A stretch of DNA of 64,000 bases from Thalassococcus halodurans (GTDB taxonomy: Bacteria > Pseudomonadota > Alphaproteobacteria > Rhodobacterales > Rhodobacteraceae). The position numbers and the translations under genes are program-made. The stretch spans positions 104,943 through 168,942 of the forward strand of contig CATNDK010000001.1 of assembly GCA_950096585.1 (NCBI GenBank), read 5' to 3'. Shown piece after piece: positions 486 through 49,003 of the stretch. The notes below the pieces were generated by a model. It saw nothing but the letters and a program-made list of their open reading frames with translations, was not told the DNA's origin and ran no database searches. The stretch's first letter is position 1. Every line of letters begins with the position of its first letter.

Positions 486-1556
486 GTGCGGAACGCCTTG
501 GACAATCTGGCAATCAACGGCCGCTTCCTGACGCGGACGCCCACAGGTGTTGATCGGACGGCTTATGAAATGACCTGCGCGTTGGCGGATATGTCTGCGC
601 AAAATGGCGTGCAGCCGCCCAAGATCGTGGTGCCAACGGATGCCCAAACGATCATTCCGTTTCCCGACGCGATGCCCGTTCAGGCGCTTGGAAAGGTCCG
701 GCGCGGGGGTGGCGCGTTTTGGGAACAGAGCAGTCTTGCGGCCCTTCCCAAAGATCAGATGCTTCTCAATTTTTGCAATACGGGGCCTATGCTGCGCAGG
801 CATCAGGCGGTGATGATCCATGACGCACAAGTCTGGTCCTCACCCGAAAGCTACAGCGCGTCCTTCCGGAATTGGTACCGGCTGTTGTTGCCAATACTCG
901 CCCGCCGCGCCGATGTGGTTTTCACGGTATCGGATTATTCCCGCAAGACGTTGGAACACTTCGGCGTCGTCCCTCGGGGAAAGGCAAATGTCATTGCGAA
1001 CGGCGCGGATCATATTCTGCGTGTCCAACCTGACACCACCGTTTTGGCGCGGCACGGGTTGACCAATAGGGGCTATTTTCTGGCGATTGCCAGCAATCAT
1101 AAACATAAGAACATCGACCTGCTGGAAACCCTGCCGACAGACCGTCCTATAGTTCTCGCAGGCGGCGCACAGCGCGCGGACAAGGGAAATCTGGTCTCAA
1201 TCGGGCGCGTTTCAGAAGGCGAGCTGAGGGCACTTTATGCGTTCGCTCAAGCCCTTTTGTTTCCGTCACTCACCGAAGGTTTCGGGCTGCCCCCGCTTGA
1301 GGCGATGGCGCTGGGCACGCCTGTTATTTCATCGACCGGCGGGGCATTGCCGGACACGTGCGGCCAAGCGGCTATGTTCGCAAACCCCTCGGATGCCAAT
1401 GAATGGACCACGTGCATCCGAAGGCTGAATGGCTCCAGCCAGCTTTGGGATGAACTGTCAGCCATGGGAACTGAACACGCGGCCAAATACACATGGGCCA
1501 GATCAGCAGACCTGATCCGGCACCATCTGTCCGAAGCCAGCGGGATTAGCCGATAG
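486..1556 (+). CDS. Glycosyltransferase family 4 (GT-B, WbpY/MtfA-like mannosyltransferase type)
   Basis: N-terminal INGRFL..PTGV and C-terminal FPSLTEGFGLPPLEAMALGTPVI motif; lies next to manC. Confidence 0.9.
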   Translation: MRNALDNLAINGRFLTRTPTGVDRTAYEMTCALADMSAQNGVQPPKIVVPTDAQTIIPFPDAMPVQALGKVRRGGGAFWEQSSLAALPKDQMLLNFCNTGPMLRRHQAVMIHDAQVWSSPESYSASFRNWYRLLLPILARRADVVFTVSDYSRKTLEHFGVVPRGKANVIANGADHILRVQPDTTVLARHGLTNRGYFLAIASNHKHKNIDLLETLPTDRPIVLAGGAQRADKGNLVSIGRVSEGELRALYAFAQALLFPSLTEGFGLPPLEAMALGTPVISSTGGALPDTCGQAAMFANPSDANEWTTCIRRLNGSSQLWDELSAMGTEHAAKYTWARSADLIRHHLSEASGISR

Positions 1557-3870
1557 GCCCGTATCCAGCAGGTGCAGTTCCCGCAATCCTGTCAGAGGAC
1601 CCGTGCAATTCCACCCGCGCAGCGGCGTCATTTTTAAGGTTCACGTAGGGATAGATCGCTCCGGTCATGCCCGAGCAACTGAAACCACTTGTCGATGTTG
1701 CGGGATCTGCCGCGGCGTTGTTGTTCCAGACAATGTCTCCGGACTTTCGCAGCCAGAACTGGCTTGTCGTCGTGTCGACGGCGATCTGGATGATGTCGCC
1801 GTCCGCGATGGTATTCCCGCTGCCCATAAAGGACGCTCCGCCGGTGTGAAAAACATATGCACCCGACCAATAGCAACGGGACACACCGTTTTGGCCGCCG
1901 GTTGCGTAGTCGATTGTATCGCCGGAAATACCCAACCCGTTTACGCCGAAAGTTGCGCCAACCTCAAAGTAGACCGTTCCGCTAATCGCGGTCGCACCCC
2001 GCGTATGGCGCATACCATTGATCGCGGCAGTAGCCGACACTGTCCTGTCGCTATCGCTGTAAGCCAGCTGCTCGGGCGCAGGGCTGTTGATCTGGCTGTC
2101 CCAAGCGACGATTGCGCTCGCCACCGGCGCGGTCACCGCCGAAGTTGCGGCAGAAACCGCAGGCGCACTTTGGCCATCGGCGTTTGTTGCAATAACAGAG
2201 ACTGATACTGCAGTCCCTTCCAGTTCTGCCCCAACCGTCAAAATGTTCTCGGTTGCGCCGGATATCGCCACACCATCGGCCAGCCATTGGTACGCATATG
2301 CGGTGGGTGACCCGCTCCACGTTCCGTTCGAGGCCGTCAAAATATCACCTACTACCGGTGTCAGGCTGTCGATTTCTGGCAGGCTCGTGTTTGTCGGGGG
2401 CACCAAGATGACAGGCGTTGTTCCAAGGTCATAAACAACTTTGAAAAGCCCCGCTTTAGTCACCCGATATGTGACCGAACCCCCTGCTGCGACGGATAGT
2501 CTAAGAATTGCAGGTACGGTGGTTCTATCTGCAGTCAAGGCGACCAGTTTTGCATGCGGATACAAAGTCTCAGTAGGTGGATTTGTGACTGCGACGTCGA
2601 AATACCCACCCAGGATCGAGCCGTCGACTGTCAGCGTCTGGATGCCATTGAAACCGGTGCTGGCCGCATCGACAGACACCTCAAAAATGCTGTCGAATAT
2701 TTCGCCTGTCGCGGCCTCCATTGTGACGTCGGCTCTAAGTTGTAGCTGACCTTTGTCCGGCGCATCGGTGATCGATACGATGAGATCGTTGTTGACGCCG
2801 CGTGAAATCGTCCAACTGCCAGTACCCACTGCGCGTGTAGCCTGCCAACCTGTCGGAACGATGCCCGAGACACCCGTTGCAGCGGCAGGTGTATCCCCGT
2901 CCAAAGTGGCAAGCGCACCCAAACGGTTCGCCGCATTGTCAATCCGGTTGCCCGACACAAGGCTGCGGATGGTGCTGGCAGTTTGCCCCGCTAGATAAGC
3001 GGCGCCATGGGACACATTGGGGTGTGTCCGGTCATCCTTCATGGTCACGGGATCAAAGCCAGAGACATCGACAGCAATCACTGACGGATTGAGCGCTGCG
3101 ATATCGCGAATGATTTGAGCCAGTTCGGCGTAATATGCGTCATTGCCATATGGGTCGACGTCTTCGGCACTGTTCCGGCCATCCGGTAAGGTCGGCACGG
3201 CAACGACCGTCGCGCCAGCCGCGACATAGCGGTCAAACAGCTCCTGAATCTGCGTTCGATGATCTTCAACAGTCGCGTTCAGTTCACGATTTGCACCAAT
3301 CGGTCCTACCACAACAATCGTATTGTCGGGGATAATCCGCTCAATCACGCTGCCCGCACTATCCAGCATATCGATGATCGTATGACCGCCGACCGCCTGA
3401 TTGTATTCCGGCGGAACCAGCGCGACATCCCCCGTAGCCGACACCAGAAGATCGCGAAATCCGGTATGCGCTATGACGCTGTCGCCATCGATCAAAAGCG
3501 TAGGCGGCGTGTCCGCTGAGAAGATTTCCGTCGTCACGCCCAAAAGGTTTTCCGGAAGAATGGTCGAACGGGACGTCAAGCTTCCGTACTGGACTAGCTC
3601 CTGCTCTCCGTTTGCAAGCAGCCAGATGTTGTAGACACAGCTTTGACCTTCGGGCAGTGCACCAAGATCGTCTGTAACAAGCACCGCTTGGCTGTCTTGC
3701 GTCACGTGTTGAAGAAGCGGCGATTGGTGGGAATGCTCGGCGATCGTGATGGCCACGCTTGCACCCGTCGGAACGCTGCCAAAGTGAAACGCCAGCGCTT
3801 CGCCGGTGAAAAATCGGACATCCTTACGTGCGACTTCGTTTCCGAATTGCACCATCACGTTCTCGGTCAT
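1546..3870 (-). CDS. Multidomain protein: N-terminal adaptor-like domain, SGNH/GDSL hydrolase, beta-sandwich, Ig-like repeat, C-terminal SPRY/B30.2-like domain
   Basis: 774-aa ORF with SGNH blocks GDS(131), NQAVGG, GAN(194), DRTH(280-283); Ig-like PTNTSLPEI..VGDILTASNGTWSGSPTAYAYQWLADG; SPRY-like VYFEV..GDIIQIAVD..FWLRKSG..IYPYV..TAPAGY. Confidence 0.7.
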   Translation of the reverse strand: MTENVMVQFGNEVARKDVRFFTGEALAFHFGSVPTGASVAITIAEHSHQSPLLQHVTQDSQAVLVTDDLGALPEGQSCVYNIWLLANGEQELVQYGSLTSRSTILPENLLGVTTEIFSADTPPTLLIDGDSVIAHTGFRDLLVSATGDVALVPPEYNQAVGGHTIIDMLDSAGSVIERIIPDNTIVVVGPIGANRELNATVEDHRTQIQELFDRYVAAGATVVAVPTLPDGRNSAEDVDPYGNDAYYAELAQIIRDIAALNPSVIAVDVSGFDPVTMKDDRTHPNVSHGAAYLAGQTASTIRSLVSGNRIDNAANRLGALATLDGDTPAAATGVSGIVPTGWQATRAVGTGSWTISRGVNNDLIVSITDAPDKGQLQLRADVTMEAATGEIFDSIFEVSVDAASTGFNGIQTLTVDGSILGGYFDVAVTNPPTETLYPHAKLVALTADRTTVPAILRLSVAAGGSVTYRVTKAGLFKVVYDLGTTPVILVPPTNTSLPEIDSLTPVVGDILTASNGTWSGSPTAYAYQWLADGVAISGATENILTVGAELEGTAVSVSVIATNADGQSAPAVSAATSAVTAPVASAIVAWDSQINSPAPEQLAYSDSDRTVSATAAINGMRHTRGATAISGTVYFEVGATFGVNGLGISGDTIDYATGGQNGVSRCYWSGAYVFHTGGASFMGSGNTIADGDIIQIAVDTTTSQFWLRKSGDIVWNNNAAADPATSTSGFSCSGMTGAIYPYVNLKNDAAARVELHGSSDRIAGTAPAGYGPIG

Positions 3871-3978
3871 ATCGCACCCCTTATGAAAAAGCTGACCGCG
3901 AATTTTGTGGCGTTTGGCTAAAAAGCCTTTAGGCCGCCGTGCGCTACCGCATCGGAAGCAACGGATTGTCTGCGCTGC

Positions 3979-3994
3979 TTAAGGGGCTGTTAAC
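3979..3994. promoter_or_regulatory. Putative CtrA binding site
   Basis: TTAA-GGGGCTG-TTAAC, an exact match to the TTAA-N7-TTAAC consensus, in a divergent intergenic region. Confidence 0.65.
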
Positions 3995-4044
3995 CTTGCT
4001 CAAGAATTAATGAGGCCAGCTCTTAACCTGCCTCCGGTTCTTTT

Positions 4045-5244
4045 ATGGTCACTCTGAAACCAGCACTCTTAACGGCTCTCACCCTTGCACTGCCAAGTAT
4101 GGTGGTGGCTGGCGACTATCAGTTGATCGTCGGTGACGAGGTGCAGTTGCTTTTGCCCGGCGATACCGAGCCGTCTGTTATGAAGGTCGATCTGGATGGC
4201 GAAATCCGGTTGCCCGGTTTGGGCGGGGTCGCCGTTTCAGGGTTCAGTCTGGATCAAGCGGAACAGACAATCGAAACGGCTCTCGCGGACCGTGGTCTAT
4301 ACTCAAACCCTGACATCACTATCGACATTGCAAACTATGCGCATGTGACGGTCGTCGGCGATGTCGCGCGTCCGGGCCGCTATGATTTCACGCCGGGAAT
4401 GACCGTTGCCACCGCTTTGGCCATGTCTGGGGGCCATCAGGAATGGGGCGTCAGCAAAATCGAACTCGAGCGGGCGCAGATCGATCTGGAAAGCCAGCGA
4501 AAGGCGTCCAACTACGAATTGGCGACGCTCGTTCTGCAAGAAGCTCAGCTGAGCGCAAAATTGCAGGATTTGGCTAAATTAGAGCCTGTTATTTCCCGTA
4601 TCCCTCAACCGACTGCGGTCAATTTCAATACCAGATTGGATCAGGCCACAGCACTTTTTACGCAAGAGCGCTCCTACTACGCTGAAACCCTTGCCTTCAT
4701 GGAAAAAGAGATCGGCGACCTGTTGCGCCAAAAGGAACTGTTCGATCAGAAGCTGGCCGTACAGAACGAAATTCTGGATGCGGCTGAACAGGGAATGGCG
4801 CGTTCGAAAGAGCTGCTGGCAAAGGGTCTACAGACCTCGACCCAGCAGGCGATTACGCAACAGCGCTACGCAGATGCGCGGGCGAAAAAGCTGGAACTCG
4901 AACAGGCAATATTGCTGGCAGACCGCGCATGGTCGGACGTGTTGAAGGCGAAGTCTTCTTTTGTCGAAGACCGCCGTCAAAAAGCGATGACTGAGTTGAT
5001 GCAGACACAGGCCAAGCTGGATCAAGAAACGCTGAACTACCGCCGTTTGGTTAAACAACTGGCATTGCTCAGCGGCGGGGAATTCGCCGCAGCCCTACTG
5101 TCAGAAGATGCGACCCAAACCGTCAGTGTTCAAAGCTCGCGCTCAGGGCGCGAATTGCTGGAGGTTGCGGATACCAACCTGTCTCTGATGCCCGGTGATA
5201 CGGTGATTATCAGCCTTAACGACCCAAGCTTTTTCGACGGATAA
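4045..5244 (+). CDS. Polysaccharide export protein (OPX, ExoF/Wza-like with SLBB domain and coiled coil)
   Basis: Signal peptide; DYQLIVGDEV, VDLDGEIRLPGLGGV, VTVVGDVARPGRYDFTPGMTVATALAMSGG, C-terminal LMPGDTVII. Confidence 0.88.
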   Translation: MVTLKPALLTALTLALPSMVVAGDYQLIVGDEVQLLLPGDTEPSVMKVDLDGEIRLPGLGGVAVSGFSLDQAEQTIETALADRGLYSNPDITIDIANYAHVTVVGDVARPGRYDFTPGMTVATALAMSGGHQEWGVSKIELERAQIDLESQRKASNYELATLVLQEAQLSAKLQDLAKLEPVISRIPQPTAVNFNTRLDQATALFTQERSYYAETLAFMEKEIGDLLRQKELFDQKLAVQNEILDAAEQGMARSKELLAKGLQTSTQQAITQQRYADARAKKLELEQAILLADRAWSDVLKAKSSFVEDRRQKAMTELMQTQAKLDQETLNYRRLVKQLALLSGGEFAAALLSEDATQTVSVQSSRSGRELLEVADTNLSLMPGDTVIISLNDPSFFDG

Positions 5245-5247
5245 CCG

Positions 5248-6417
5248 ATGTACATCAGGTCCAGAAAAGCACCTCGGGTCGCGTTGATCCACTACTGGCT
5301 GGTGGGGATGCGTGGTGGCGAAAAGGTTCTGGAATCGCTGTGCCAGATGTTCCCACAAGCGGATATTTTCACGCATGTTGCTATTCCTGAAAAGCTTAGT
5401 CCGACACTGCGCCGCCATAGAATAATAGAGACTAACATTTCCCAATATCCGTTCTCGAGGCGCCACTATCAGAACTACCTCCCCTTAATGCCTCGCGCTC
5501 TCGAGGCGCTGGATCTCAGGGGATACGACTTGGTGATTTCGTCTGAATCGGGTCCTGCCAAGGGTGTGCTGCCCCCGCCTGATGCGCCGCACCTGTGCTA
5601 CTGTCACTCACCGATGCGCTACATCTGGGATCAGTTCCATGTGTACCGCGAACAGGCCAGCCCGTTGCAACGGGCCGTGATGCCCCTGTTCGCTCATGGC
5701 TTGCGTCAGTGGGACGTCTCTTCGTCCGCGCGCGTCGATGGTTTTGTTGCGAACTCGACTCATGTGTCCAAACGCATCCGTAAATACTGGCGCCGAGAGG
5801 CTACCGTCGTCTCGCCACCGGTAAACGTTTCCTCGTTCCAGCCCGCCCCGAAAGAAGAAATCAGTGATAGCTATCTATGGGTTGGCGATCTTGCCTCGTA
5901 CAAACGGCCTGACCTGATGCTTCAGGCCTTTAAACAGATGAATTTGCCATTGAACATCATCGGCGGATCTAAGGCGCAGATACGCCAATTGTCCTCTTTG
6001 GCAGGGCAACGCACGAAATTTCTGGGTCACGTCGATGCTCAAACTTTGCGCGATTATCTCAGCCGCTGTCGGGCGCTGATTTTTCCCGGCGAGGAAGACT
6101 TCGGCATCGTGCCTGTCGAGGCTATGGCCGCGGGTCGTCCCGTAATTGCCTATGGTCGCGGTGGTGTCCTTGATACGGTTGTCGACGGACATACAGGAAT
6201 TTTCTTTGATGATCCCACCGTCGACAGTCTGGTCGGCGCAATAGACAGGTTCCAAAAATCCGGTTTGGCGTCGGCGGACTCGGCAGTGTTCACCACCCAA
6301 GCTGGTAAATTCACCGAGGCCCGGTTTCACGCGGGCATTGTCAAAGCGCTGAAAAACATTGGAATTGACGAAAACGTTTGCGACTTCCCTTTGCCGGTCA
6401 GGCTTGCATCAGTTTAG
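5248..6417 (+). CDS. Glycosyltransferase family 4 (WbaZ-like)
   Basis: VALIHYWLVGMRGGEKVL, CYCHSPMRYIWD, EEDFGIVPVEAMAAGRPVIAYGRGG. Confidence 0.92.
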   Translation: MYIRSRKAPRVALIHYWLVGMRGGEKVLESLCQMFPQADIFTHVAIPEKLSPTLRRHRIIETNISQYPFSRRHYQNYLPLMPRALEALDLRGYDLVISSESGPAKGVLPPPDAPHLCYCHSPMRYIWDQFHVYREQASPLQRAVMPLFAHGLRQWDVSSSARVDGFVANSTHVSKRIRKYWRREATVVSPPVNVSSFQPAPKEEISDSYLWVGDLASYKRPDLMLQAFKQMNLPLNIIGGSKAQIRQLSSLAGQRTKFLGHVDAQTLRDYLSRCRALIFPGEEDFGIVPVEAMAAGRPVIAYGRGGVLDTVVDGHTGIFFDDPTVDSLVGAIDRFQKSGLASADSAVFTTQAGKFTEARFHAGIVKALKNIGIDENVCDFPLPVRLASV

Positions 6418-6451
6418 ATAAGATCTGAATGCAGTAAATCGTGGGGTTTTT

Positions 6452-7825
6452 ATGTCACCAAAGTTTGGAACCAGCGGGCTTCGTGGATTGGTAACGGAAC
6501 TGACGCCGGAATTGGTGACATCCTACGTTCAGGCCTTCCTGCGATCCTGCGATGTCGGAAGTAAGCTCTTTGTCGGCCGTGATTTGCGGCCGTCTTCTCC
6601 GAACCTAGCCGACATTGTCATGACTGCGGCCCAAAACATGGGAATGACCGCAATCGACGCGGGCGAAGTGCCGACGCCTGCATTGGCGCTCACGGCCCAA
6701 CAGCAGGACGCCAGCGCAATCATGATCACCGGCAGCCACATACCTGCGGATCGCAATGGGCTGAAATTCTATTCCCGCGCGGGCGAAATCGCCAAAAAGG
6801 ATGAAACAGCGATCTGTGCGGCTTTGGAGAAGCCGGTGCAGGCTGTTGCCCCAGGTCAGCGTGTCAACGATCCGGAAGTGAACTCTCGCTATGTGTTGCG
6901 ATACGTGACGGCTTTTGGAAGTGCGGCGTTGGCCGGAAAAAGGATCGGACTTTACTCACATTCTGCCGTTGGTCGCGACGTGCTGGCCAGTATCCTGCGG
7001 CTACTCGGTGCCGAGGTGACTGAACTCGGACGCTCTGAAACCTTCATTCCTGTTGATACCGAAGCGGTTGATAGCGCAACGCGTGACAGCATCCGTACAT
7101 GGGTTCAGTTGAACGGTTTCGATGCGGTGATGTCGATGGATGGCGATTCCGACAGGCCGCTGCTTGCTGATGAAAACGGAAAGATCGTTCCCGGCGACGT
7201 CATGGGCCAGATCACCGCCGAGGCATTGGATGCCGACACTGTCGTCACGCCCATTTCCTCGAACAGCGGTGTTTCTGCCAAAGGCTTTGCGAACGTGCAT
7301 TTAACCCGTATCGGATCGCCGTTTGTGATTGCTGGTATGGAAGCGGCTGGCGGCAAGGTTATCGGCTACGAGGCGAACGGCGGTTTCCTTTTGGGGTTCG
7401 AGGCCACGGCCCTTATCGGAACCTTGTCGCCGCTTATCACGCGTGACTGCGTTTTGCCTTTGATCATGACATTGGTCGCGGCGGGTGATGGCCCTGTTTC
7501 CCAGCGTGTCGCCCATGAACCGCGCGTTATCACGGTCGCTGACCGGCTTCAGGATGTTGCGCAGGTCCGCTCTTCTGCTTTTGTTGGCAAACTGGCGCAA
7601 GATCCGGAGGCGCGCGCGCGTTTTCTGACGGCGCTAGGTTCGACCGAACGGAAAACCGATCTGACCGATGGCGTGCGTATGTATCTGACAGATGGTCGGG
7701 TCGTGCACGTTAGACCATCGGGAAATGCCCCCGAATTGCGCCTTTACGTCGAAGCGCAGGACGAGGACGCAGCAAACGCGACTTTGGCACTCGGGCTTGA
7801 CGTATTACGCTCGAATCTTGCTTGA
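6452..7825 (+). CDS. manB: Phosphomannomutase
   Basis: KFGTSGLRG, ITGSHIPADRNGLK (catalytic Ser), DGDSDRP metal loop, GYEANGG, VRPSGNAPELR. Confidence 0.93.
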   Translation: MSPKFGTSGLRGLVTELTPELVTSYVQAFLRSCDVGSKLFVGRDLRPSSPNLADIVMTAAQNMGMTAIDAGEVPTPALALTAQQQDASAIMITGSHIPADRNGLKFYSRAGEIAKKDETAICAALEKPVQAVAPGQRVNDPEVNSRYVLRYVTAFGSAALAGKRIGLYSHSAVGRDVLASILRLLGAEVTELGRSETFIPVDTEAVDSATRDSIRTWVQLNGFDAVMSMDGDSDRPLLADENGKIVPGDVMGQITAEALDADTVVTPISSNSGVSAKGFANVHLTRIGSPFVIAGMEAAGGKVIGYEANGGFLLGFEATALIGTLSPLITRDCVLPLIMTLVAAGDGPVSQRVAHEPRVITVADRLQDVAQVRSSAFVGKLAQDPEARARFLTALGSTERKTDLTDGVRMYLTDGRVVHVRPSGNAPELRLYVEAQDEDAANATLALGLDVLRSNLA

Positions 7826-7995: not shown

Positions 7996-9330
7996 ATGAA
8001 CAGTCCGACAACATCCGGAATTGTTGCGGGACGGTTAAGTGAACAGCAGCTTGCTGACAATTTTTCCGACCTGCATGCCCCCCTTGATCCACACGAAGCA
8101 TCAGTTGCCGCAGACCGATGCTATTTCTGCCACGACGCCCCTTGCGTCACGGCTTGTCCCACCGACATCGACATCCCGCTGTTCATCCGACAGATCGCCA
8201 CAGGCCAGCCCGAAGGCGCGGCAAAAACGATCCTGTCGCAGAACATCCTTGGTGGCATGTGCGCCCGTGTGTGCCCGACTGAAACGCTGTGCGAACAGGC
8301 ATGTGTGCGGGAAGAGGCCGAGGGCAAACCGGTCATCATCGGCCAGCTTCAGCGCTTTGCAACCGACACGCTGATGGCGCAGGGCATTCATCCGTTTGCT
8401 CGCGAAGACAGTACGGGTAAGCGCGTGGCTGTTGTCGGGGCCGGCCCGTCCGGTCTTGCCTGTGCGCACCGTTTGGCGATGCGCGGCCATGATGTGGTCA
8501 TCTACGAGGCCAGTACAAAGGCCGGTGGCCTGAACGAATTTGGCATCGCCGCTTACAAATCCACCGATGATTTCGCCGCGAAAGAGGTCGACTGGCTTCT
8601 TAAAATCGGTGGTATCACCATCGAAACTGGAAAGGCACTTGGTCAGGGCCTGAACCTGTCTGACCTGACCTCGGAATTTGACGCGGTCTTCCTTTCCATC
8701 GGCTTGGGTGGTGTGAATGATCTGGCAGCAAGCGGCGCCGAAAAAATCGGCGTAACCGATGCAGTCGATTTCATCAGCCTGCTACGCCAGACAGATGATT
8801 TGAAAACACTGCCAATCGGTCGAAACGTCGTTGTGATCGGCGGTGGCATGACGGCTGTTGATGCGGCTGTTCAGTCCAAACTTCTTGGCGCTGAAAACGT
8901 TACCATCGCCTACCGCCGTGGCCGAGATCGGATGGCAGCGAGCGAGTTTGAACAGGACCTTGCGACCACGAAGGGCGTTCGAATTCTCTATAACCTGCAG
9001 CCCGTTGCCTTCCACGGAAACGGATCGGTGGTCGAGGTTGAATTTGAATACACCGCCGACACGCCAAACGGATTGCAGGGCACCGGCGAAACCATGCGTA
9101 TTCCGGCAGACCAGGTGTTCAAGGCCATCGGCCAAACGCTCGAAACTTCGGAACAGCTGAAAATCGAACGCGGCAAGATCGCTGTCACCGGCGCTGGTCG
9201 TACCAGTGTGGACGACGTCTGGGCCGGTGGCGATTGCGCGCTGGGCGGCGAAGACCTGACAGTGACCGCCGTCGCAGAAGGCCGCGATGCTGCAGAAGAC
9301 ATTCATCAAACTCTGATGGGAAAGGCGTAA
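7996..9330 (+). CDS. preT: Dihydropyrimidine dehydrogenase, NAD(P)H/FAD subunit (PreT/PydX)
   Basis: RCYFCHDAPCVTACP and CARVCPTETLCEQAC Fe-S motifs, GAGPSG and GGGMTA dinucleotide folds; adjacent to preA. Confidence 0.92.
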   Translation: MNSPTTSGIVAGRLSEQQLADNFSDLHAPLDPHEASVAADRCYFCHDAPCVTACPTDIDIPLFIRQIATGQPEGAAKTILSQNILGGMCARVCPTETLCEQACVREEAEGKPVIIGQLQRFATDTLMAQGIHPFAREDSTGKRVAVVGAGPSGLACAHRLAMRGHDVVIYEASTKAGGLNEFGIAAYKSTDDFAAKEVDWLLKIGGITIETGKALGQGLNLSDLTSEFDAVFLSIGLGGVNDLAASGAEKIGVTDAVDFISLLRQTDDLKTLPIGRNVVVIGGGMTAVDAAVQSKLLGAENVTIAYRRGRDRMAASEFEQDLATTKGVRILYNLQPVAFHGNGSVVEVEFEYTADTPNGLQGTGETMRIPADQVFKAIGQTLETSEQLKIERGKIAVTGAGRTSVDDVWAGGDCALGGEDLTVTAVAEGRDAAEDIHQTLMGKA

Positions 9331-9333
9331 ACC

Positions 9334-10638
9334 ATGGCTGATCTTACGACCAATTTCTTGGGCATCACTTCGCCGAACCCGTTCTGGCTGGCCTCTGCCC
9401 CTCCCACGGACAAAGAATACAACGTCCGTCGCGCATTCGAGGCCGGCTGGGGCGGTGTTGTCTGGAAAACGCTGGGATCGGAAGGCCCCCCAATCGTCAA
9501 CGTGAACGGCCCCCGCTATGGCGCGATCTATGGTGCTGATCGCCGCCTTCTGGGCCTGAACAACATTGAACTGATCACAGACCGTCCCTTGGAAACTAAC
9601 CTTGAGGAAATGGCCCGCGTCAAAGCCGATTACCCGGACCGCGCGCTGATCGCGTCCATCATGGTCCCGTGTGAGGAGGAAGCGTGGAAAGCGATCCTGC
9701 CCCGCGTGGCCGAAACCAACGCCGACGGGATTGAGCTGAACTTCGGATGTCCCCACGGGATGAGCGAGCGGGGCATGGGTGCTGCCGTCGGTCAGGTGCC
9801 CGAGTACATCGAGATGGTCACGCGCTGGTGCAAAAAATACTACGACCGCCCTGTCATCGTGAAGCTGACGCCGAACATCACTGACGTTCGTTATCCTGCG
9901 CGAGCCGCAAAGAACGGTGGTGCGGATGCGGTCAGCCTGATCAACACGATCTCGTCCATCACGTCCGTTAACCTCGATAACTTCAGCCCTGAACCGTCGA
10001 TTGACGGCAAAGGCAGCCACGGTGGCTATTGTGGCCCGGCGGTGAAGCCTATCGCGATGAACATGGTTGCCGAAATTGCCCGTGATCCGGAAACGCATGG
10101 TCTGCCCATCAGCGGCATTGGTGGGGTCACCACATGGCGCGACGCGGCTGAATTCATGTCGCTAGGCGCTGGCAACGTCCAGGTTTGCACGGCAGCGATG
10201 ACCTATGGCTTCAAGATCGTGCAGGAAATGATCACTGGTCTATCTGAATGGATGGACAAAAAGGGCTACACATCGACATCTGACTTCATCGGTCAGGCCG
10301 TGCCCAACGTGACCGACTGGCAGTACCTGAACCTGAACTACATCGCCAAGGCCAAGATCGATCAGGACGCCTGCATCAAATGCGGTCGCTGCTATATCGC
10401 GTGCGAAGATACCAGCCATCAGGCGATCTGGATGAAGGAAGGCCGCGTGTTCGAGGTCAACGATGCCGAATGCGTGGCATGCAACCTTTGCGTCGATGTT
10501 TGCCCGATCGAAGGCTGCATCACGATGGAACGGATGCCAGCAGGCGCAACAGACCCGCGTACAGGCCAGACCGTTCAGGAAGAATACGCCAACTGGACGA
10601 TGCACCCGAACAACCCGTCCTCGCAGGCGGCGGAATAA
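9334..10638 (+). CDS. preA: Dihydropyrimidine dehydrogenase, FMN subunit (PreA/PydA)
   Basis: NPFWLASAPPT, ELNFGCPHGM, KLTPNITD, and C-terminal CIKCGRC / CVACNLC ferredoxin motifs. Confidence 0.96.
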   Translation: MADLTTNFLGITSPNPFWLASAPPTDKEYNVRRAFEAGWGGVVWKTLGSEGPPIVNVNGPRYGAIYGADRRLLGLNNIELITDRPLETNLEEMARVKADYPDRALIASIMVPCEEEAWKAILPRVAETNADGIELNFGCPHGMSERGMGAAVGQVPEYIEMVTRWCKKYYDRPVIVKLTPNITDVRYPARAAKNGGADAVSLINTISSITSVNLDNFSPEPSIDGKGSHGGYCGPAVKPIAMNMVAEIARDPETHGLPISGIGGVTTWRDAAEFMSLGAGNVQVCTAAMTYGFKIVQEMITGLSEWMDKKGYTSTSDFIGQAVPNVTDWQYLNLNYIAKAKIDQDACIKCGRCYIACEDTSHQAIWMKEGRVFEVNDAECVACNLCVDVCPIEGCITMERMPAGATDPRTGQTVQEEYANWTMHPNNPSSQAAE

Positions 10639-10642
10639 AAAT

Positions 10643-10685
10643 CGGGGCGCTGCATGGCTTTGATGCAGATTTGTGCAGCGCCCCG
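10643..10685 (+). terminator. 12-bp GC-rich stem-loop after preA (terminator or mRNA-stabilising hairpin)
   Basis: CGGGGCGCTGCA...TGCAGCGCCCCG inverted repeat; no U-tract. Confidence 0.5.
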
Positions 10686-10724
10686 CTCAAACCATTCTCA
10701 GGCCAGAAGCGCACAGAATAAATC

Positions 10725-10740
10725 TTGACCGGCTGGTCAG
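10725..10740. promoter_or_regulatory. Putative RutR/PydR operator
   Basis: TTGACC-GGCT-GGTCAG, near-perfect RutR box, upstream of the carbamoylase-hydA-ABC operon. Confidence 0.75.
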
Positions 10741-10823
10741 TTTCTGTTCGCCTAGTGGCGATCCAGTGATCCAAGCCCGACCAAGCCAAAAGGCGTAGGG
10801 CACGACAACAGGGAGACATGCTT

Positions 10824-12074
10824 ATGCCCGCACCCGGTGAAAACCTGCGGATCAATGGCGACCGTCTTTGGGACAGTCTGATGGATATGGCCAAAATCGG
10901 CCCCGGTGTTGCGGGCGGTAACAACCGCCAGACTCTGACCGACGCCGACGGCGAAGGCCGCGCGCTATTTAAGCAATGGTGCGATGACGCGGGCTGTACG
11001 ATGGGTGTCGATTCCATGGGCAACATGTTCGCCCGCCGCGAAGGCACCGATCCGGACGCGCTGCCTGTTTACGTCGGCTCTCACCTTGATACGCAACCCA
11101 CCGGCGGCAAATACGACGGTGTTCTGGGCGTTCTAGGCGGGCTAGAGGTGATCCGGTCGCTCAATGACATGGGCATCAAAACCAAACACCCGATTGTTGT
11201 GACCAATTGGACCAACGAAGAAGGCACGCGCTTTGCCCCCGCCATGCTGGCCTCGGGTGTGTTTGCCGGTGTTCACACTCAAGACTGGGCCGAAGACCGT
11301 ACGGATGCTCAGGGAAAACGGTTTGGCGATGAACTGGACCGGATCGGCTGGCGCGGGGATGAACCCGTCGGCGCCCGCAAGATGCACGCGTTTTTCGAAC
11401 TGCACATCGAACAGGGCCCGATCCTAGAAGCGGAAGGCAAAGACATCGGTGTCGTGACACATGGTCAGGGTCTGGCGTGGATTCAGGTGACGATCACCGG
11501 CAAAGATGCGCACACAGGCTCTACCCCCATGCCGATGCGCAAGAACGCGGGCCTTGGAATGGCGCGCATTCTGGAAAAGGTCGATGAAATCGCATGGTCC
11601 CACAAACCCCACGCCGTGGGCGCCGCGGGGCACATCGATGTCTACCCGAACTCGCGCAATGTGATCCCCGGTAAGGTTGTCTTTACTGTCGATTTCCGTT
11701 CACCCGATCTGGCCGTCATTCAGGACATGGAAAAGCGCCTGTATGAAGAGGGCGAAAAGATCGCCGCTGACATGGGCCTGACGATTGAATTTGAAAAGGT
11801 TGGCGGTTTTGACCCCGTCGCCTTTGACGATGGCTGTGTCAGCGCCATTCGCGGCGCGGCGGAACGTCTGGGTTATTCCCACATGAATATCATTTCGGGC
11901 GCTGGGCACGATGCCTGCTGGATCAATCAGGTGGCCCCGACCGCAATGGTGATGTGCCCTTGTGTCGATGGCCTAAGCCACAACGAAGCCGAAGAGATTT
12001 CGAAAGAATGGGCGACAGCAGGCGCTGACGTTCTTCTGCACGCCGTGGTCGAAACGGCCGAGATCGTATCGTGA
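10824..12074 (+). CDS. Beta-ureidopropionase / N-carbamoyl-L-amino-acid hydrolase (M20 Zn hydrolase, PydC-like)
   Basis: GSHLDTQPTGGKYDG, WTNEEGTRF, ELHIEQGP, SGAGHDA, SHNEAE; pyrimidine cluster context. Alternative start at 10818. Confidence 0.93.
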   Translation: MPAPGENLRINGDRLWDSLMDMAKIGPGVAGGNNRQTLTDADGEGRALFKQWCDDAGCTMGVDSMGNMFARREGTDPDALPVYVGSHLDTQPTGGKYDGVLGVLGGLEVIRSLNDMGIKTKHPIVVTNWTNEEGTRFAPAMLASGVFAGVHTQDWAEDRTDAQGKRFGDELDRIGWRGDEPVGARKMHAFFELHIEQGPILEAEGKDIGVVTHGQGLAWIQVTITGKDAHTGSTPMPMRKNAGLGMARILEKVDEIAWSHKPHAVGAAGHIDVYPNSRNVIPGKVVFTVDFRSPDLAVIQDMEKRLYEEGEKIAADMGLTIEFEKVGGFDPVAFDDGCVSAIRGAAERLGYSHMNIISGAGHDACWINQVAPTAMVMCPCVDGLSHNEAEEISKEWATAGADVLLHAVVETAEIVS

Positions 12075-12129
12075 CAGAACGGCACAAACCGATAAGCTAT
12101 ACGAATTCAATGATCCGAGGAGTATTTCC

Positions 12130-13584
12130 ATGACCACTGTGATCAAGAACGGAACGGTCGTCACCCATGACCTGACCTACAATGCAGATGTTCTGATTGA
12201 GAACGGCCAGATCATTGAAATCGGGCAGGGATTGTCGGGCAACGAAGTGTTGGACGCCACGGGTTGCTACGTAATGCCGGGTGGTATCGATCCGCACACC
12301 CACCTTGAGATGCCGTTCATGGGCACATACTCGAGCGATGATTTCGAAAGCGGCACACGCGCGGCGCTGTCCGGTGGCACCACGATGGTTGTCGACTTCG
12401 CGCTGCCGTCGCCGGGTCAGGGCCTGCTGGACGCGATCCAGATGTGGGACAACAAATCGACCCGCGCGAATTGTGACTATTCCTTCCACATGGCCGTCAC
12501 ATGGTGGAGCGAACAGGTCTTTGATGAAATGGAAACCGTGATCAAGGATCGCGGGATCAACACGTTCAAACACTTCATGGCCTACAAAGGCGCGTTGATG
12601 GTCAACGATGATGAACTTTACGCATCGTTCAACCGTCTCGCCGATCTGGGCGGCATCGCCATGGTGCACGCCGAAAACGGCGATGTGGTTGCAGAATTGT
12701 CCGCCAAGCTTCTGGCAGAGGGCAACACAGGCCCCGAAGCACACGCCTATTCCCGCCCCCCGCAGGTCGAAGGCGAAGCAACCAACCGCGCGATCATGAT
12801 CGCCGACATGGCGGGTGTTCCGCTCTATGTTGTCCACACGTCTTGCGAAGAATCCCACGAGGCCATCCGCCGCGCCCGCCAGCAGGGCAAGCGCGTTTGG
12901 GGTGAACCGCTGATCCAGCACCTGACCTTGGACGACAGCGAATACTTCAACACTGATTGGGACCATGCCGCGCGCCGCGTCATGTCGCCCCCGTTCCGCA
13001 ACAAACAGCATCAGGATAGCCTGTGGGCGGGGCTTCAGTCCGGCTCTCTTTCCGTCGTGGCAACCGACCACTGTGCATTCACGACCGAGCAGAAACGCTA
13101 TGGCGTTGGCGACTTTACAAAGATCCCGAACGGAACCGGCGGGCTCGAGGACCGTATGCCAATGCTCTGGACATACGGCGTAGGCACGGGTCGACTGACC
13201 CCGAACGAATTCGTCGCCGTTACGTCGACCAACATTGCGAAAATCCTGAATTGTTATCCGAAAAAGGGTGCGGTTCTGGTCGGCGCGGATGCGGACCTTG
13301 TTGTCTGGGATCCCGAGAAGGAAAAAACGATCACAAGCAGCACACAGCAGTCTGCAATCGATTACAACGTGTTCGAGGGCAAAAAGGTCAAAGGCCTGCC
13401 GCGCTACACGCTGACCCGTGGGCAGGTCGCCGTGATGGATGGTGAAATCAAAACCCAAGAAGGCCATGGCGAGTTCGTCAAACGTGAACCCAACACGCCT
13501 GTGAATCGCGCCCTCAGCACTTGGAAAGAACTGACCTCGCCCCGTCCGGTCGAGCGAACAGGAATACCCGCAACCGGTGTTTGA
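12130..13584 (+). CDS. hydA: Dihydropyrimidinase
   Basis: PGGIDPHTHL, FKHFMAYKG, VHAENG, ATDHCAF, IPNGTGGLEDRM. Confidence 0.96.
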   Translation: MTTVIKNGTVVTHDLTYNADVLIENGQIIEIGQGLSGNEVLDATGCYVMPGGIDPHTHLEMPFMGTYSSDDFESGTRAALSGGTTMVVDFALPSPGQGLLDAIQMWDNKSTRANCDYSFHMAVTWWSEQVFDEMETVIKDRGINTFKHFMAYKGALMVNDDELYASFNRLADLGGIAMVHAENGDVVAELSAKLLAEGNTGPEAHAYSRPPQVEGEATNRAIMIADMAGVPLYVVHTSCEESHEAIRRARQQGKRVWGEPLIQHLTLDDSEYFNTDWDHAARRVMSPPFRNKQHQDSLWAGLQSGSLSVVATDHCAFTTEQKRYGVGDFTKIPNGTGGLEDRMPMLWTYGVGTGRLTPNEFVAVTSTNIAKILNCYPKKGAVLVGADADLVVWDPEKEKTITSSTQQSAIDYNVFEGKKVKGLPRYTLTRGQVAVMDGEIKTQEGHGEFVKREPNTPVNRALSTWKELTSPRPVERTGIPATGV

Positions 13585-17296: not shown

Positions 17297-17914
17297 TCAG
17301 GTGTTCGGATCAAGAAGTTTGCGGAACACCATATCCAGGAAAATTTCTGCCCCTTTGAACGGGTCTTTCTTGCCCAGGATTGCCCTGATCTGCACTTCGA
17401 AATCCGCATAGTGCTGTGTCAGCGCCCAGATGGAAAAGATCAGGTGCACGGGATCGACCTTGGCGATTTTGCCCTCTGCGATCCAGCCTTCGATAATTGC
17501 GGCCTTTTCGTCGACCAAGTCTTTCAGCCCGCCTTCCATGATTTCAGTCAGGCGCGGCGCACCTTGCAGAGTTTCGTTTGCAAACAGGCGGCTTTCGCGC
17601 GGCATCTCTTTGCTCATCTGCAGTTTGCGTTGAACGTATTGCAGCAATTCTTCGCGCGGCTCGCCGTTCGCATCGATGTCGCGAAGCGGTTGTAGCCAGA
17701 TATCCAGCAAGTCCACCAGAAGGGTGCGGTGGATGTCTTCTTTGCTTGAGAAATAGTAGATCAGGTTCGGCTTGGACAGGCCCGCCTCAGAAGCGATTTG
17801 ATCAAGCGTAGAACCGCGAAACCCGTTCTGGGAAAAAACCTCAAGCGCGGCATCCAGAATACGTTTGCGGTTGCGCAACTGAATGCGGCTAAAGGTTTTT
17901 TCGGGTTCTGTCAT
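17297..17914 (-). CDS. rutR: TetR-family regulator RutR/PydR
   Basis: HTH ILDAALEVFSQNGFRGSTLDQIASEAGLSKPNLIYYF; TetR_C_3-type PRESRLFANE and IFSIWALTQHYADF; start set at MTEPEK. Confidence 0.88.
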   Translation of the reverse strand: MTEPEKTFSRIQLRNRKRILDAALEVFSQNGFRGSTLDQIASEAGLSKPNLIYYFSSKEDIHRTLLVDLLDIWLQPLRDIDANGEPREELLQYVQRKLQMSKEMPRESRLFANETLQGAPRLTEIMEGGLKDLVDEKAAIIEGWIAEGKIAKVDPVHLIFSIWALTQHYADFEVQIRAILGKKDPFKGAEIFLDMVFRKLLDPNT

Positions 17915-17980
17915 AGGTCTATTCCATACAAGTAGGCAAAATCTAACAGCCCATCCGCCCAAGCGCGAGACCTAACAAAG

Positions 17981-45890: not shown

Positions 45891-46421
45891 TCAGGTCAGT
45901 ACAAATTCCATGATCATCAGGTCGCGAACCACATCGGGCCCCAACACCAGATATAGCCGGTGCGCCAAATGGGTGCGGATGTTGTGAAGCGATCCCGGAC
46001 TATCGATGTCCGAAGGCTCCAACGCGCGCAGATACGAATTAAAGGCGTCCAGAACCCTTGGTTCCAGATCGACAACGTGCTGCACGTGGGGCTTATAAAC
46101 CTCGATCGCGGCCGAGAACCGCAGAAGCCTGTTATTGCCGCCGCTGATCGAGACGGCGATTGGTGGCAATCGCACAAATTCGACCTCATCGGGCCCGGGC
46201 GGACGTGGCTGCTTTTCATAAAAGGCGCGGTCTTCGCCGACCGGATCAGGTTCGCGTTCGACGTGTTCGGTCGTGGCCGCGCCGAAGGGCAGCATGCCCT
46301 TGCTGACCGCAAAAAACCCGCCCGCGCCGCCAACAATCGCCAGCACGATGCCCACAATCAGACCGGCCATCCCGCCACGCTTTTTTCCGGCGGCTTTATT
46401 AGGTTCGGAGGTGTCAGTCAT
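45891..46421 (-). CDS. fliL: Flagellar basal-body associated protein FliL
   Basis: N-terminal TM with GGAGGFF, PRVLDAFNSYLRAL, C-terminal EFVL. Confidence 0.85.
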   Translation of the reverse strand: MTDTSEPNKAAGKKRGGMAGLIVGIVLAIVGGAGGFFAVSKGMLPFGAATTEHVEREPDPVGEDRAFYEKQPRPPGPDEVEFVRLPPIAVSISGGNNRLLRFSAAIEVYKPHVQHVVDLEPRVLDAFNSYLRALEPSDIDSPGSLHNIRTHLAHRLYLVLGPDVVRDLMIMEFVLT

Positions 46422-46465
46422 TTTTCATTCCTTTCTGCCCTGAAATTCAAATTAGGCGGAATGGG

Positions 46466-46480
46466 CTAACCGATTGTTAA
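46466..46480. promoter_or_regulatory. Putative CtrA site in the fliL/fliF divergent region
   Basis: Minus strand reads TTAA-CAATCGG-TTAG. Confidence 0.55.
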
Positions 46481-46519
46481 GTCGCGTGGACCATTTTCAC
46501 CTTTGTCGAAGAAATTGAC

Positions 46520-48121
46520 TTGGCGAAGGAGACAGGGTTGCAGCAACTACTGGCAATCTGGAAATCGCTCAGCGCGGGACGGCGCTTGGTTGTGGTGGGC
46601 GCAACCGTGGCGATGTTTGTCGCTGTACTGGGCATGACCCGCGTTGCGACTGCACCGTCGCTTTCGCTTTTGTACTCTGGTCTGGATGAACGTTCGGCTG
46701 GCGACGTTATTTCGGCGCTGGAAAGTCGGAACATCATCTATGAAGTCGAAGGAACGTCGATCTATGTGCCGATGGCGGAACGTGACAGCCTAAGGCTGTC
46801 ATTGGCCAGCGAAGGCCTGCCCAGCGTCGGGGACAGTGGCTATGAACTGCTTGATTCCCTGACGGGATTTGGCACGACATCACAAATGTTTGACGCGGCT
46901 TACTGGCGCGCAAAAGAGGGCGAACTGGCCAGAACGCTGGTCGCTGGGGCACATATTTCCAAGGCCCGCGTACACATCGCGGTCGGGTCGTCCAAGCCGT
47001 TTCAACGCGAATCAAAGCCGTCGGCATCTGTTTCGGTGACCGGAACCAATGGGCCGATCTCGGGAAAGGAAGCCCGAGCAGTCCGCCATCTGGTGGCTTC
47101 TGCGGTTCAGGGATTGCTTCCTGATGATGTGTCGGTCGTCGATGCAGAAGGCGGTTTGATCGGCGACGGTACATCCAGCGCGGCGAACGTGCATGAAACC
47201 ATGGTCAAATCGCTGCGCGAAAGGGTTTTGCGGCTGGTAGAGGCCCGCGTTGGGGCAGGCAACGCTGTTGTCGAGGTCAGTGTAAATGCAGTTCACGAAA
47301 GCGAATCCGTGTTCGAGCGGCGCTTTGATCCGGACAGTCGGTTCGTCATCAGTTCCGAGACCGAAGAGCGGACAGGTCAAAGTCAGGATGAAGGCGGGGC
47401 GGGTGTTACAGTTGCCTCGAACCTGCCGGATGGCGCGGGCGGCAGCGGGGCGGGCTCTTCCAATCAGGAAAGCGAAACGCGCGAGCGTGTGAACTATGAG
47501 GTGTCCGAAACCACGCGCGAGGTCACCAGAACGCCGGATGCTGTCAGGCGGGTGACCGTTGCGGTTCTGGTCAATGGCACGTTCGAACAGAACGCCGATG
47601 GACAGCAGGCCTTTGTTCCTATGCCAGCAGAAGATCAGGCCGCGCTTCGTGAGCTCGTCTCTTCCGCCGTGGGTTTTGACGAAGCGCGCGGCGATGTGAT
47701 CACTGTGCATTCTATGCCCTTCAAGCAGACCGAAGGCCTGGGTTCTGTCGCGGCTGTTCCGGGGTTCTTTGAACGGTTTTCGCCAGAGATTATGAAGATC
47801 GCGCGGATTGGTGTTCTGGGCCTGATCATCGTTGCGGTTGGGGCCTTTGTTTTGCGTCCGATTCTGACCAACACGGCACCCGCGTTGCCGGATCGGATTG
47901 CGCTTGAACCTACTCAATCACCCCTTCGTCCGATGCAGCCCGCATTGGATGGCGAGATTGATTCAGTCCGCGCGTTCAACGGGACGGACAGCGCTATTGC
48001 GACCGTCGCGCCCCCTTTGGACCCTGCGCAGCGTTTGCGCGGCTTGGTGGATGAGCGGCGCGAAGAAGCGGTCGAAATACTCAGATCGTGGCTGGATGAG
48101 CCAGAGGAGCAAAGACGATGA
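46520..48121 (+). CDS. fliF: Flagellar MS-ring protein
   Basis: LLYSGLD, GYELLD..GFGTTSQMF, AKEGELART, ARVHI, VASNLP, GFDEARGD. Confidence 0.93.
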   Translation: MAKETGLQQLLAIWKSLSAGRRLVVVGATVAMFVAVLGMTRVATAPSLSLLYSGLDERSAGDVISALESRNIIYEVEGTSIYVPMAERDSLRLSLASEGLPSVGDSGYELLDSLTGFGTTSQMFDAAYWRAKEGELARTLVAGAHISKARVHIAVGSSKPFQRESKPSASVSVTGTNGPISGKEARAVRHLVASAVQGLLPDDVSVVDAEGGLIGDGTSSAANVHETMVKSLRERVLRLVEARVGAGNAVVEVSVNAVHESESVFERRFDPDSRFVISSETEERTGQSQDEGGAGVTVASNLPDGAGGSGAGSSNQESETRERVNYEVSETTREVTRTPDAVRRVTVAVLVNGTFEQNADGQQAFVPMPAEDQAALRELVSSAVGFDEARGDVITVHSMPFKQTEGLGSVAAVPGFFERFSPEIMKIARIGVLGLIIVAVGAFVLRPILTNTAPALPDRIALEPTQSPLRPMQPALDGEIDSVRAFNGTDSAIATVAPPLDPAQRLRGLVDERREEAVEILRSWLDEPEEQRR

Positions 48122-48720: not shown

Positions 48721-49003
48721 GACGACACAAAACGGAATGTTCCGCCCCGAACTGCAATCCTTGTCGAGCGTACCGATTGAAATCACGGTTTCAGTCGGCC
48801 GCGCCCGACCGACCGTGCGGGATCTGACCCAGTTCGGTGTCGGATCGGTGCTGATGTTGGACAAGCAGGTGGATGATCCTGTCGATCTCTACGTCGGCGA
48901 CCGGTTGATCGGGCAGGGCGTGCTGGAAGTCAGCGAAGAGGATGGCCGTGCTCAGCTTTCGGTAAGGTTGGTGGATATCGCCGAACTCAAGGATGCCACC
49001 TGA
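48713..49003 (+). CDS. fliN: Flagellar motor switch FliN (SpoA domain)
   Basis: VPIEITVSVGR, GSVLMLDK..DDPVDLYVGDRLIGQG. Confidence 0.87.
   Translation: MDKTTQNGMFRPELQSLSSVPIEITVSVGRARPTVRDLTQFGVGSVLMLDKQVDDPVDLYVGDRLIGQGVLEVSEEDGRAQLSVRLVDIAELKDAT

Follow-up and report, generated by a model that had tools for sequence, protein, structure and literature searches.

A putative polysaccharide O-acyl esterase with a phage baseplate-type N-terminal fold encoded beside wza in Thalassococcus halodurans

What does a protein with the layout of a phage baseplate component do when its gene lies in a cellular polysaccharide locus? The question is raised by an open reading frame (ORF) of 774 amino acids (1546..3870, minus strand, ATG start) in a 64-kb stretch of the genome of Thalassococcus halodurans (contig CATNDK010000001.1), referred to here as the window. 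A first-pass annotation of this DNA had described the product as a phage-tail-like SGNH esterase and had proposed a tailspike as one of its possible identities. We conclude that the gene is a long-standing resident beside the polysaccharide export gene wza and does not belong to a phage, and that its product has the body plan of the peripheral baseplate proteins of siphophages, in which a ring-type N-terminal domain is followed by a flexible linker and by enzyme and lectin modules. Regarding its function, the reading that we favour, with a probability of roughly 0.45, is that the protein is an O-acyl esterase for the polysaccharide of its own locus, made on the plan of a phage baseplate protein and released by a route other than Sec.

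The catalytic domain and its polysaccharide locus

By its fold and its catalytic blocks the protein belongs to the SGNH hydrolase superfamily. The domain (amino acids 123-312; 2935..3504, minus strand; S131/G162/N194/D280/H283) includes the block I serine (GDS), the block II glycine, the block III asparagine (GxN) and the block V DxxH motif; D130-S131, G162, G192-x-N194 and D280-x-x-H283 do not vary among 12 aligned family members with identities of 30-69%. In the full-length AlphaFold model (7-sequence alignment; mean predicted local distance difference test, pLDDT, 72; predicted template modelling score, pTM, 0.36) amino acids ~120-310 adopt a flavodoxin-like α/β/α fold, which VIA-align superposes on 4rw0 with Z 17.1, a root-mean-square deviation (rmsd) of 2.5 and 169 aligned residues, on the acetyl xylan esterase 7ddy with Z 16.8, and on dozens of GDSL or CE3 esterases with Z 15-17. 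The complete set S131, N194, D280 and H283 that had been listed in the first-pass annotation is therefore present, invariant in the 12 sequences and accompanied by the expected fold. SGNH acyltransferases are nearly tied with the esterases in the same comparison (OatA-C, Z 16.6, rmsd 2.4, 151 aligned residues; PatB, Z 15.6). In a relative of 600 amino acids from a further genus (genome G356; L026:10817-12619, G356:C478) the same N-terminal domain is followed by a He_PIG module and a SASA acetylesterase domain (PF03629, 1.9e-15). The occurrence of SGNH and SASA esterase domains on one scaffold favours hydrolysis over acyl transfer, and to judge from the sequence the SGNH domain is probably an active esterase.

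The window opens inside a polysaccharide locus of the Wzx/Wzy type, which extends upstream and whose gene order within the window is GT4, the 774-amino acid gene, wza, GT4 and PMM. The first glycosyltransferase family 4 (GT4) gene (486..1556, plus strand; Glycos_transf_1, 7e-15) is convergent with the 774-amino acid ORF and overlaps its 3' end by 11 bp; the wza-type export gene (4045..5244, plus strand; Poly_export, 5e-12, and SLBB) is divergent from it; and the locus ends with a second GT4 gene and a phosphomannomutase/phosphoglucomutase gene (5248..7825, plus strand). The upstream part encodes a Wzy-like protein (sub-threshold), a sulfotransferase, a GT2, Bac_transf, a PCP/BY-kinase, Wzx, a GT4, an AT3 acyltransferase and ManC. 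The esterase-like gene is single copy in its genome and its GC content (0.55-0.58) is similar to that of the neighbouring genes. The 57 ORFs of the window that were scanned with Pfam comprise polysaccharide, pyrimidine-catabolism, ABC-transport, housekeeping and flagellar genes, with no phage family among them, in agreement with the earlier remark that the window holds no other phage genes.

The association of the gene with this kind of locus is conserved. Counted over its own locus and seven others (L004-L010), i.e. eight Rhodobacterales loci, a Wzx/Wzy polysaccharide locus surrounds the gene in all eight, which bears out the previous suggestion that the protein is tied to such loci. A wza gene is present in 7/8 (not found in L010), a sulfotransferase in six, a convergent GT4 gene directly downstream of the gene in six, and an AT3 acyltransferase within a few kb in seven of the eight (not found in L007). 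Outside Thalassococcus the gene lies on the same strand as wza, either after wza (L004, L005, L008) or after wza-GT4 (L007, L009), with gaps of ~55-75 bp when the longest ORFs are taken; the Thalassococcus gene has the opposite orientation and diverges from wza. No phage family was found among the scanned neighbours in the eight loci, nor at the G356 locus.

The ORF, its folds, the invariant catalytic residues and the synteny are observed, and can be brought together in a simple scheme, of which the substrate, the direction of the reaction (hydrolysis), the location and the export are what we infer. The AT3 acyltransferase of the locus would add O-acyl groups to the polymer; the carbohydrate-binding module (CBM)-like, Ig and SPRY modules of the 774-amino acid protein would bind this polymer, and its SGNH centre, with S131 as the nucleophile, G162 and N194 as the oxyanion hole, and D280 and H283, would hydrolyse the O-acyl esters. 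Removal of the esters would tune the properties of the polymer for the producing population. A writer and an eraser encoded in one cluster are known from patA-patB-ape1, in the O-acetylation of peptidoglycan.

The same neighbourhood could be read in the opposite sense, with the SGNH domain taking an acyl group from the membrane-bound AT3 protein and transferring it to the polysaccharide, as OafB, PatB and AlgX do. The AT3 gene found near the family in all but one of the loci, which is stand-alone in the window's own locus and in L006, L008, L009 and L010, suits such a partnership, and so do the Z scores of OatA-C and PatB given above. However, a partner of AT3 would be expected in the periplasm beside it, and the protein starts with a soluble beta-sandwich and has neither a signal peptide nor a membrane anchor; moreover, two Limimaricola loci (L004, L005) keep the gene despite encoding an AT3 protein already fused to its own SGNH domain (PF19040), and the G356 relative bears an acetylesterase domain of the SASA family instead. 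We consider a role in acyl transfer improbable.

The ATG of the ORF is preceded by a Shine-Dalgarno-like AAGGGG and is the first ATG, GTG or TTG of the open frame; since translation starts at the earliest possible codon, an N-terminal extension is impossible and a hidden upstream signal peptide is excluded. Within amino acids 1-30 there is no signal peptide, given that the segment is charged (E3, E12, R15, K16, D17, R19) and has no hydrophobic run. The length of 774 amino acids, the lack of a signal peptide and the orientation opposite to the GT4 and export genes, all reported in the first-pass annotation, are thus confirmed. A protein of this kind must exit by a non-Sec route, and either type I secretion or lysis would serve. 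In a metagenomic relative, P0033 (770 amino acids), a typical signal peptide (MLRSILVTVAALALLFGLAPASA...) takes the place of the beta-sandwich at the N-terminus, and this suggests that the protein acts outside the cytoplasm.

The N-terminal domain and the modules that follow it

The N-terminus had been compared with the adaptor domains that attach fibres and spikes to virions, and Foldseek had been named as a way to examine the likeness. The domain (amino acids 1-101; 3568..3870, minus strand), modelled alone as amino acids 1-108 from a 16-sequence alignment, gave a beta-sandwich at amino acids 2-101 with pLDDT 92.6 and pTM 0.84; E24, L69, W83, L92, G96 and P106 are invariant in the 16 sequences. 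Against the whole PDB the best Foldseek match was the BppU protein of phage Douge (8zdo_a; E 2e-6, TMq 0.68), the first 16 among the matches listed were all phage baseplate or connector chains (Douge, NF5, TP901-1 4v96, 80alpha 6v8i, Bas63), and non-phage sandwiches appeared first at E ~5e-4. VIA-align, which is independent of Foldseek and was run on 48,161 representative chains, also placed the Douge chain first (Z 10.6, rmsd 3.2, 95 aligned residues), and phage tail, neck or baseplate proteins made up 10 of its top 23 rows; cupredoxin-like proteins also matched, at Z 7-8.4, a range that VIA-align calls common. In BFVD, which is viral by construction, 176 matches at E<=1e-3 carried names such as BppU, distal tail protein, tailspike, baseplate and tail fibre; in the ESM Atlas, taken as a lead only, 29/30 matches were viral clusters of 107-121 amino acids with a score of 0.93.

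At the sequence level the picture is different. Pfam and PHROGs gave no match for the N-terminal domain, and the BppU/LtfC families PF10651 and PF23926 were not found; one of 12 relatives matched an LtfC-like model with 22.3 bits, below the 27-bit cut-off. A search with the sequence of the domain yielded no match among shorter proteins and, among proteins of nearly the same length, three close relatives and nothing else. The earlier comparison with virion adaptors therefore holds by fold (Douge BppU, as above) and fails by sequence family: as modelled, the N-terminal domain is a fold of the virion-attachment type and not a member of such a sequence family.

The domain ends near amino acid 101 and gives way to a low-confidence flexible linker (amino acids 102-122; 3505..3567, minus strand; pLDDT <50 over 103-122), the place where relatives have zero to two Ig inserts of the He_PIG type. 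This is the layout of Douge BppU (gp23), which consists of a ring domain (amino acids 1-100), a flexible linker (amino acids 101-115) and a carbohydrate-binding module, and whose ring domains, twelve in number, surround the distal tail protein (PMC13033339). Since the same N-terminal domain precedes esterase domains of two families, both at polysaccharide loci, we suggest that it serves for delivery or docking and can be separated from the enzyme.

Alternatively, the protein could be an accessory enzyme of a gene transfer agent (GTA) or of another tail-like particle. It would be cytoplasmic in the GTA-producing cells, would dock through its BppU-type ring domain on the tail or baseplate, or be co-released, and would exit by lysis; it would then strip O-acyl groups from the polysaccharide of the recipients, exposing or creating the receptor, and the position of the gene inside the locus would keep the enzyme and its cognate polymer together, making transfer specific for kin. 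We regard this proposal as the main rival of the reading favoured above, though a less probable one. The structural matches speak for it, i.e. the first 16 listed Foldseek rows, headed by Douge BppU, and the viral clusters in the Atlas, and so does the sub-threshold LtfC-like match of one relative. The lack of a signal peptide, together with the replacement of the N-terminal domain by one in P0033, makes the two look like alternative delivery devices, and the family exchanges modules (SGNH or SASA, a varying number of Ig inserts) much as phage receptor-binding proteins do. There are precedents as well: TspA of RcGTA (bioRxiv 10.64898/2026.07.19.739414) is a polysaccharide depolymerase without signal peptide that is encoded outside the GTA cluster and is loosely bound to the baseplate, and the phage fibres G7C gp63.1 and Possum gp66 include SGNH deacetylases (PMC9569702). 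On the other hand, small beta-sandwiches also occur in cupredoxins and carbohydrate-binding proteins, the VIA-align scores of 7-8.5 besides the best one (10.6) fall in the common range, and no phage family includes the N-terminal domain by sequence; in five loci the gene comes shortly after wza or GT4 and has their orientation, like a member of an operon.

Downstream of the SGNH domain three further modules were recognized, and the order that had been given before (N-terminus, SGNH, beta-rich, Ig-like and SPRY-like) was found to be correct. The first is a beta-sandwich, possibly CBM4/9-like (amino acids ~320-480; 2431..2913, minus strand), whose strands have pLDDT values of 58-90 per ten-residue block; it has no Pfam match, and amino acids 315-482 gave weak CBM_4_9 leads in the ESM Atlas with scores <=0.90. 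The second is an Ig-like module (amino acids ~485-585; 2125..2403, minus strand, corresponding to amino acids ~490-582) that matches phrog_26223 (4e-15) and phrog_12736 (3e-11). It is the only part of the protein with phage matches, which come from 163 phage records and all lie within amino acids 453-612. The module is a widespread repeat, common to giant cell-surface proteins and phage virion proteins: among 1.84 billion representative proteins 11,338 contain it, a single protein having as many as 44 copies in tandem, and for this reason it is not diagnostic of phage origin. The third is a C-terminal domain with SPRY fold (amino acids 586-774; 1549..2115, minus strand), ending in ...TAPAGYGPIG, for which VIA-align gave SPRY7 7ccb (Z 16.1, rmsd 3.0, 156 aligned residues), Ash2L (15.9) and DDX1 (15.8); the Pfam SPRY model does not match the protein and matches weakly 2/12 relatives. 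For the protein as a whole, NCBIfam gave no match and a sequence search of the PDB gave chance matches only.

The identity as a tailspike was not sustained. Among 50,697 phage records none is related in sequence to the N-terminal, SGNH or SPRY parts, or to amino acids 1-452; none of 134 candidate stretches in IMG/VR viral contigs was confirmed; and the full-length predicted model shows no coiled coil, beta-helix or fibre-like region. A Foldseek search of the PDB with this whole model, which had phage N4 tail chains, the SFP21A fibre and gp48/49 of Shigella phage B2 at the top, was set aside because the TM scores were <=0.24 (<=0.20 query-normalised) and the matches came without ranges.

Modules of the Ig, CBM-like and SPRY kinds are typical of adhesins and glycan-active enzymes, and the Ig module is common to giant repeat proteins; accordingly, the protein might be a surface or secreted lectin-esterase that acts on foreign glycans, e.g. 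algal polysaccharides, in adhesion or feeding, its placement in the locus being incidental. A distant protein from a Chthoniobacter metagenome-assembled genome (MAG), with He_PIG and GDSL_2 domains, does lie among glycoside hydrolases. Set against this are the synteny with wza in 7/8 loci, maintained across Thalassococcus, Limimaricola, Cognatishimia, Litorisediminicola and one unclassified MAG at protein identities of 30-43%, and the absence of transporter and glycoside hydrolase genes from the vicinity in the Rhodobacterales loci. A role on foreign glycans leaves this synteny unaccounted for and seems very improbable to us.

Regulation and distribution of the family

The 174-bp intergenic region between the 774-amino acid gene and wza contains the sequence TTAA-N7-TTAAC (3979..3994, plus strand), the CtrA-site consensus applied in Dinoroseobacter (PMC4046655). 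The core TTAA-N7-TTAA (3979-3993) has this single match in the window, versus 0.11 expected, and it overlaps the -35-like hexamer of the sole promoter-like site, which reads toward the 774-amino acid gene; the count of such sites is not above chance. Genome-wide the motif is not enriched (10 matches versus 19 for the reversed control) and we take it as a lead only. A second box is found in the same locus, ~4.8 kb upstream of the window start (L002:15203-15217, G000:C1), in the divergent intergenic region between PCP/BY-kinase and wzx. Among the other loci, boxes at intergenic or 5'-proximal positions were found in L007 (6609, 18283), L008 (5689) and L009 (19356), and none in L004, L005, L006, L010 and L026. 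CtrA governs GTAs and the switch between motility and exopolysaccharide in Roseobacter (PMC13392355). The box in the promoter region can hence be cited in favour of a GTA role, and is offset by the lack of enrichment and by the part of CtrA in exopolysaccharide and motility switching; because CtrA controls both processes, the box does not separate this role from that of a locus-dedicated esterase.

The window also includes flagellar genes (FliL, FliF and FliP, at 45891-49748), none of which has a perfect TTAA-N7-TTAA box. At 7996-13584 and 17297-17962 lies a cluster resembling those for reductive pyrimidine catabolism, with a two-subunit dehydrogenase of the PydA type, an M20 amidase and an amidohydrolase, accompanied by an ABC transporter and a YcdC/RutR-like TetR regulator.

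Two seawater metatranscriptome runs contain contigs that are 95-99% identical over parts of the gene (e.g. 2209-2414, 3384-3607) and over its neighbours. One of the contigs, of 529 nt and 95-99% identity, covers positions 3674-4202 of the window, that is, the start of the gene, the divergent intergenic region and the start of wza, which fits either carry-over of DNA or overlapping divergent transcripts. Since DNA may be present in these RNA libraries and this contig bridges the divergent region, we do not count the matches as proof of transcription; stretches of the gene that no contig covers are uninformative.

The family is tiny and restricted to Roseobacteraceae. A word-indexed search retrieved six true relatives and an exhaustive search about 10 further ones with shuffled architectures, which differ in the number of Ig inserts (zero to two) that separate the N-terminal domain from SGNH, and in whether He_PIG and Ig modules precede SPRY. 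When one genome per species was scanned nine loci were found, one in T. halodurans, two in Limimaricola, three in Cognatishimia, and one each in Litorisediminicola, a MAG and Chthoniobacter. The cultured strain T. halodurans DSM 26915 (Roseobacteraceae), a non-pathogenic marine bacterium, has a 96% identical protein in the same locus. The Chthoniobacter protein (L011:8048-12916; 1622 amino acids) has three He_PIG and two GDSL_2 stretches, is encoded beside GH127 and GH38 genes, and shares with the family only the SGNH and beta-sandwich part (amino acids 154-479). The gene of the G356 relative is placed between a flagellar cluster (FliI, FlgB/C, FliE, FlhA, FliR, FlhB) and Bac_transf, sulfotransferase, PCP and GT4 genes. 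One of the Limimaricola loci (L004) sits on a 156-kb plasmid; the plasmids of PLSDB gave no match for the family, although the plasmid that bears L004 is a newer one. In the polysaccharide locus of this plasmid, ~4.5 kb downstream of the homologue, a right-handed beta-helix protein of 719 amino acids is encoded (L004:17332-19491; PF13229, 5.9e-6), which may be a depolymerase.

In a set of 401 genomes, one per genus of the taxonomic family, four carry the gene, i.e. 3/400 genera besides that of the window, with one genome each. This distribution counts against an accessory enzyme of GTAs, since GTAs are widespread and the gene is not conserved across the GTA-bearing Rhodobacterales. GTA genes do occur elsewhere in the genomes concerned: the genome of the window has GTA_TIM, and the distal tail protein is encoded in a genome of the same genus and in 5/5 other carriers; a search of the window's genome, of 80% completeness, gave no member of the distal tail protein family, which is not proof of absence. 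A search with PF12218 for TspA-like caps in five carrier genomes gave no match; TspA is only "PF12218-like" and the result makes no statement on TspA itself. The most elaborate version of the proposal, a particle-borne editing enzyme that is clipped through its BppU-type ring domain on the GTA of the host, released by lysis and active in de-acylating the polysaccharide type of its own locus, so that capsule type and GTA recognition would be inherited together, DNA exchange would be kin-specific and the CtrA box would link the gene to the GTA and motility regulon, is in our view unlikely.

Several observations weigh against the O-acyl esterase dedicated to its own locus, the reading that we nonetheless favour. 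Regarding the enzyme, the GDSL_2 threshold of Pfam (PF13472, Lipase_GDSL_2) is missed (22.9 bits versus a cut-off of 32.9; 3/12 family members match the model at E<=1, the best with 31.5 bits, also below the cut-off), the loop between D280 and H283 has pLDDT <50 in the full-length model, and the SGNH acyltransferases score almost as well as the esterases. Regarding its place in the cell, the protein has no signal peptide and no known export route, and a conserved N-terminal domain of the phage baseplate type is not needed by a purely cellular enzyme. Regarding the locus, in the window the gene is a transcription unit of its own with a CtrA-consensus box in the promoter region, and its rarity (the 3/400 other genera) indicates that it is not a core part of polysaccharide loci.

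Comparison with known systems and significance

Enzymes that write or erase acyl groups on the polysaccharides of the cell surface set the biofilm behaviour of Roseobacters, the adsorption of phages and GTAs, and interactions with algae. If the protein is a domesticated phage part that edits the polymer of its own host, it would exemplify clearly how a host takes over a receptor-destroying enzyme; should it travel on GTAs, it would provide a genetic mechanism that couples capsule type to the specificity of gene exchange, and slime type may thus be linked to virus-like gene-transfer particles. Full-text literature searches that combined gene transfer agent with SGNH, and BppU, SGNH and exopolysaccharide, with the supplements of the TspA preprint outside their scope, gave no description of such a protein.

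Among cellular enzymes, the nearest parallels are Ape1/PatB, AlgX/AlgJ and the AT3-SGNH protein OafB; in them too an SGNH domain is joined to a carbohydrate-binding one, and their genes lie next to the acyltransferase gene for the same polymer, but they have signal peptides or membrane anchors. To our knowledge, neither a BppU-like domain at the N-terminus nor a SPRY domain is found in any of them.

The siphophage BppU proteins (Douge gp23; TP901-1 ORF48) share with the 774-amino acid protein an N-terminal beta-sandwich of ~100 amino acids, a flexible linker and one or more carbohydrate-binding modules (PMC13033339). In contrast to them, the protein lies outside their sequence family, is encoded in a cellular polysaccharide locus without phage genes, and bears SGNH and SPRY domains; assembly as a ring on the distal tail protein belongs to BppU, with which our protein is compared by predicted fold. 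The SGNH fibres or spikes G7C gp63.1 and Possum gp66 are likewise built of an N-terminal module for attachment, an SGNH esterase and a binding domain at the C-terminus, and act on surface polysaccharide (PMC9569702), an activity that is predicted for the protein studied here. They are encoded by phage genomes, whereas the SGNH part of the protein studied here has no phage match, its N-terminal fold is of another type and it has no fibre-like region.

Within Rhodobacterales, the closest likeness is to TspA of RcGTA (rcc02623), also of ~770 amino acids, without signal peptide, with an N-terminal beta-sandwich and encoded outside the GTA cluster; the activity of TspA on polysaccharide is proven, whereas that of the 774-amino acid protein is predicted (bioRxiv 10.64898/2026.07.19.739414). 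According to the same source, TspA is a trimeric beta-helix depolymerase, encoded beside lysS, regulated by GafA and present in almost all GTA-bearing Rhodobacterales; the protein described here is a predicted SGNH esterase whose gene adjoins wza and is rare. Precedents exist for SGNH esterases of polysaccharide clusters, for SGNH fibres of phages and for BppU ring domains taken singly; what is new is their combination, in which an attachment fold of the phage baseplate type and a complete esterase centre are joined in a protein without signal peptide that resides at a fixed place beside wza.

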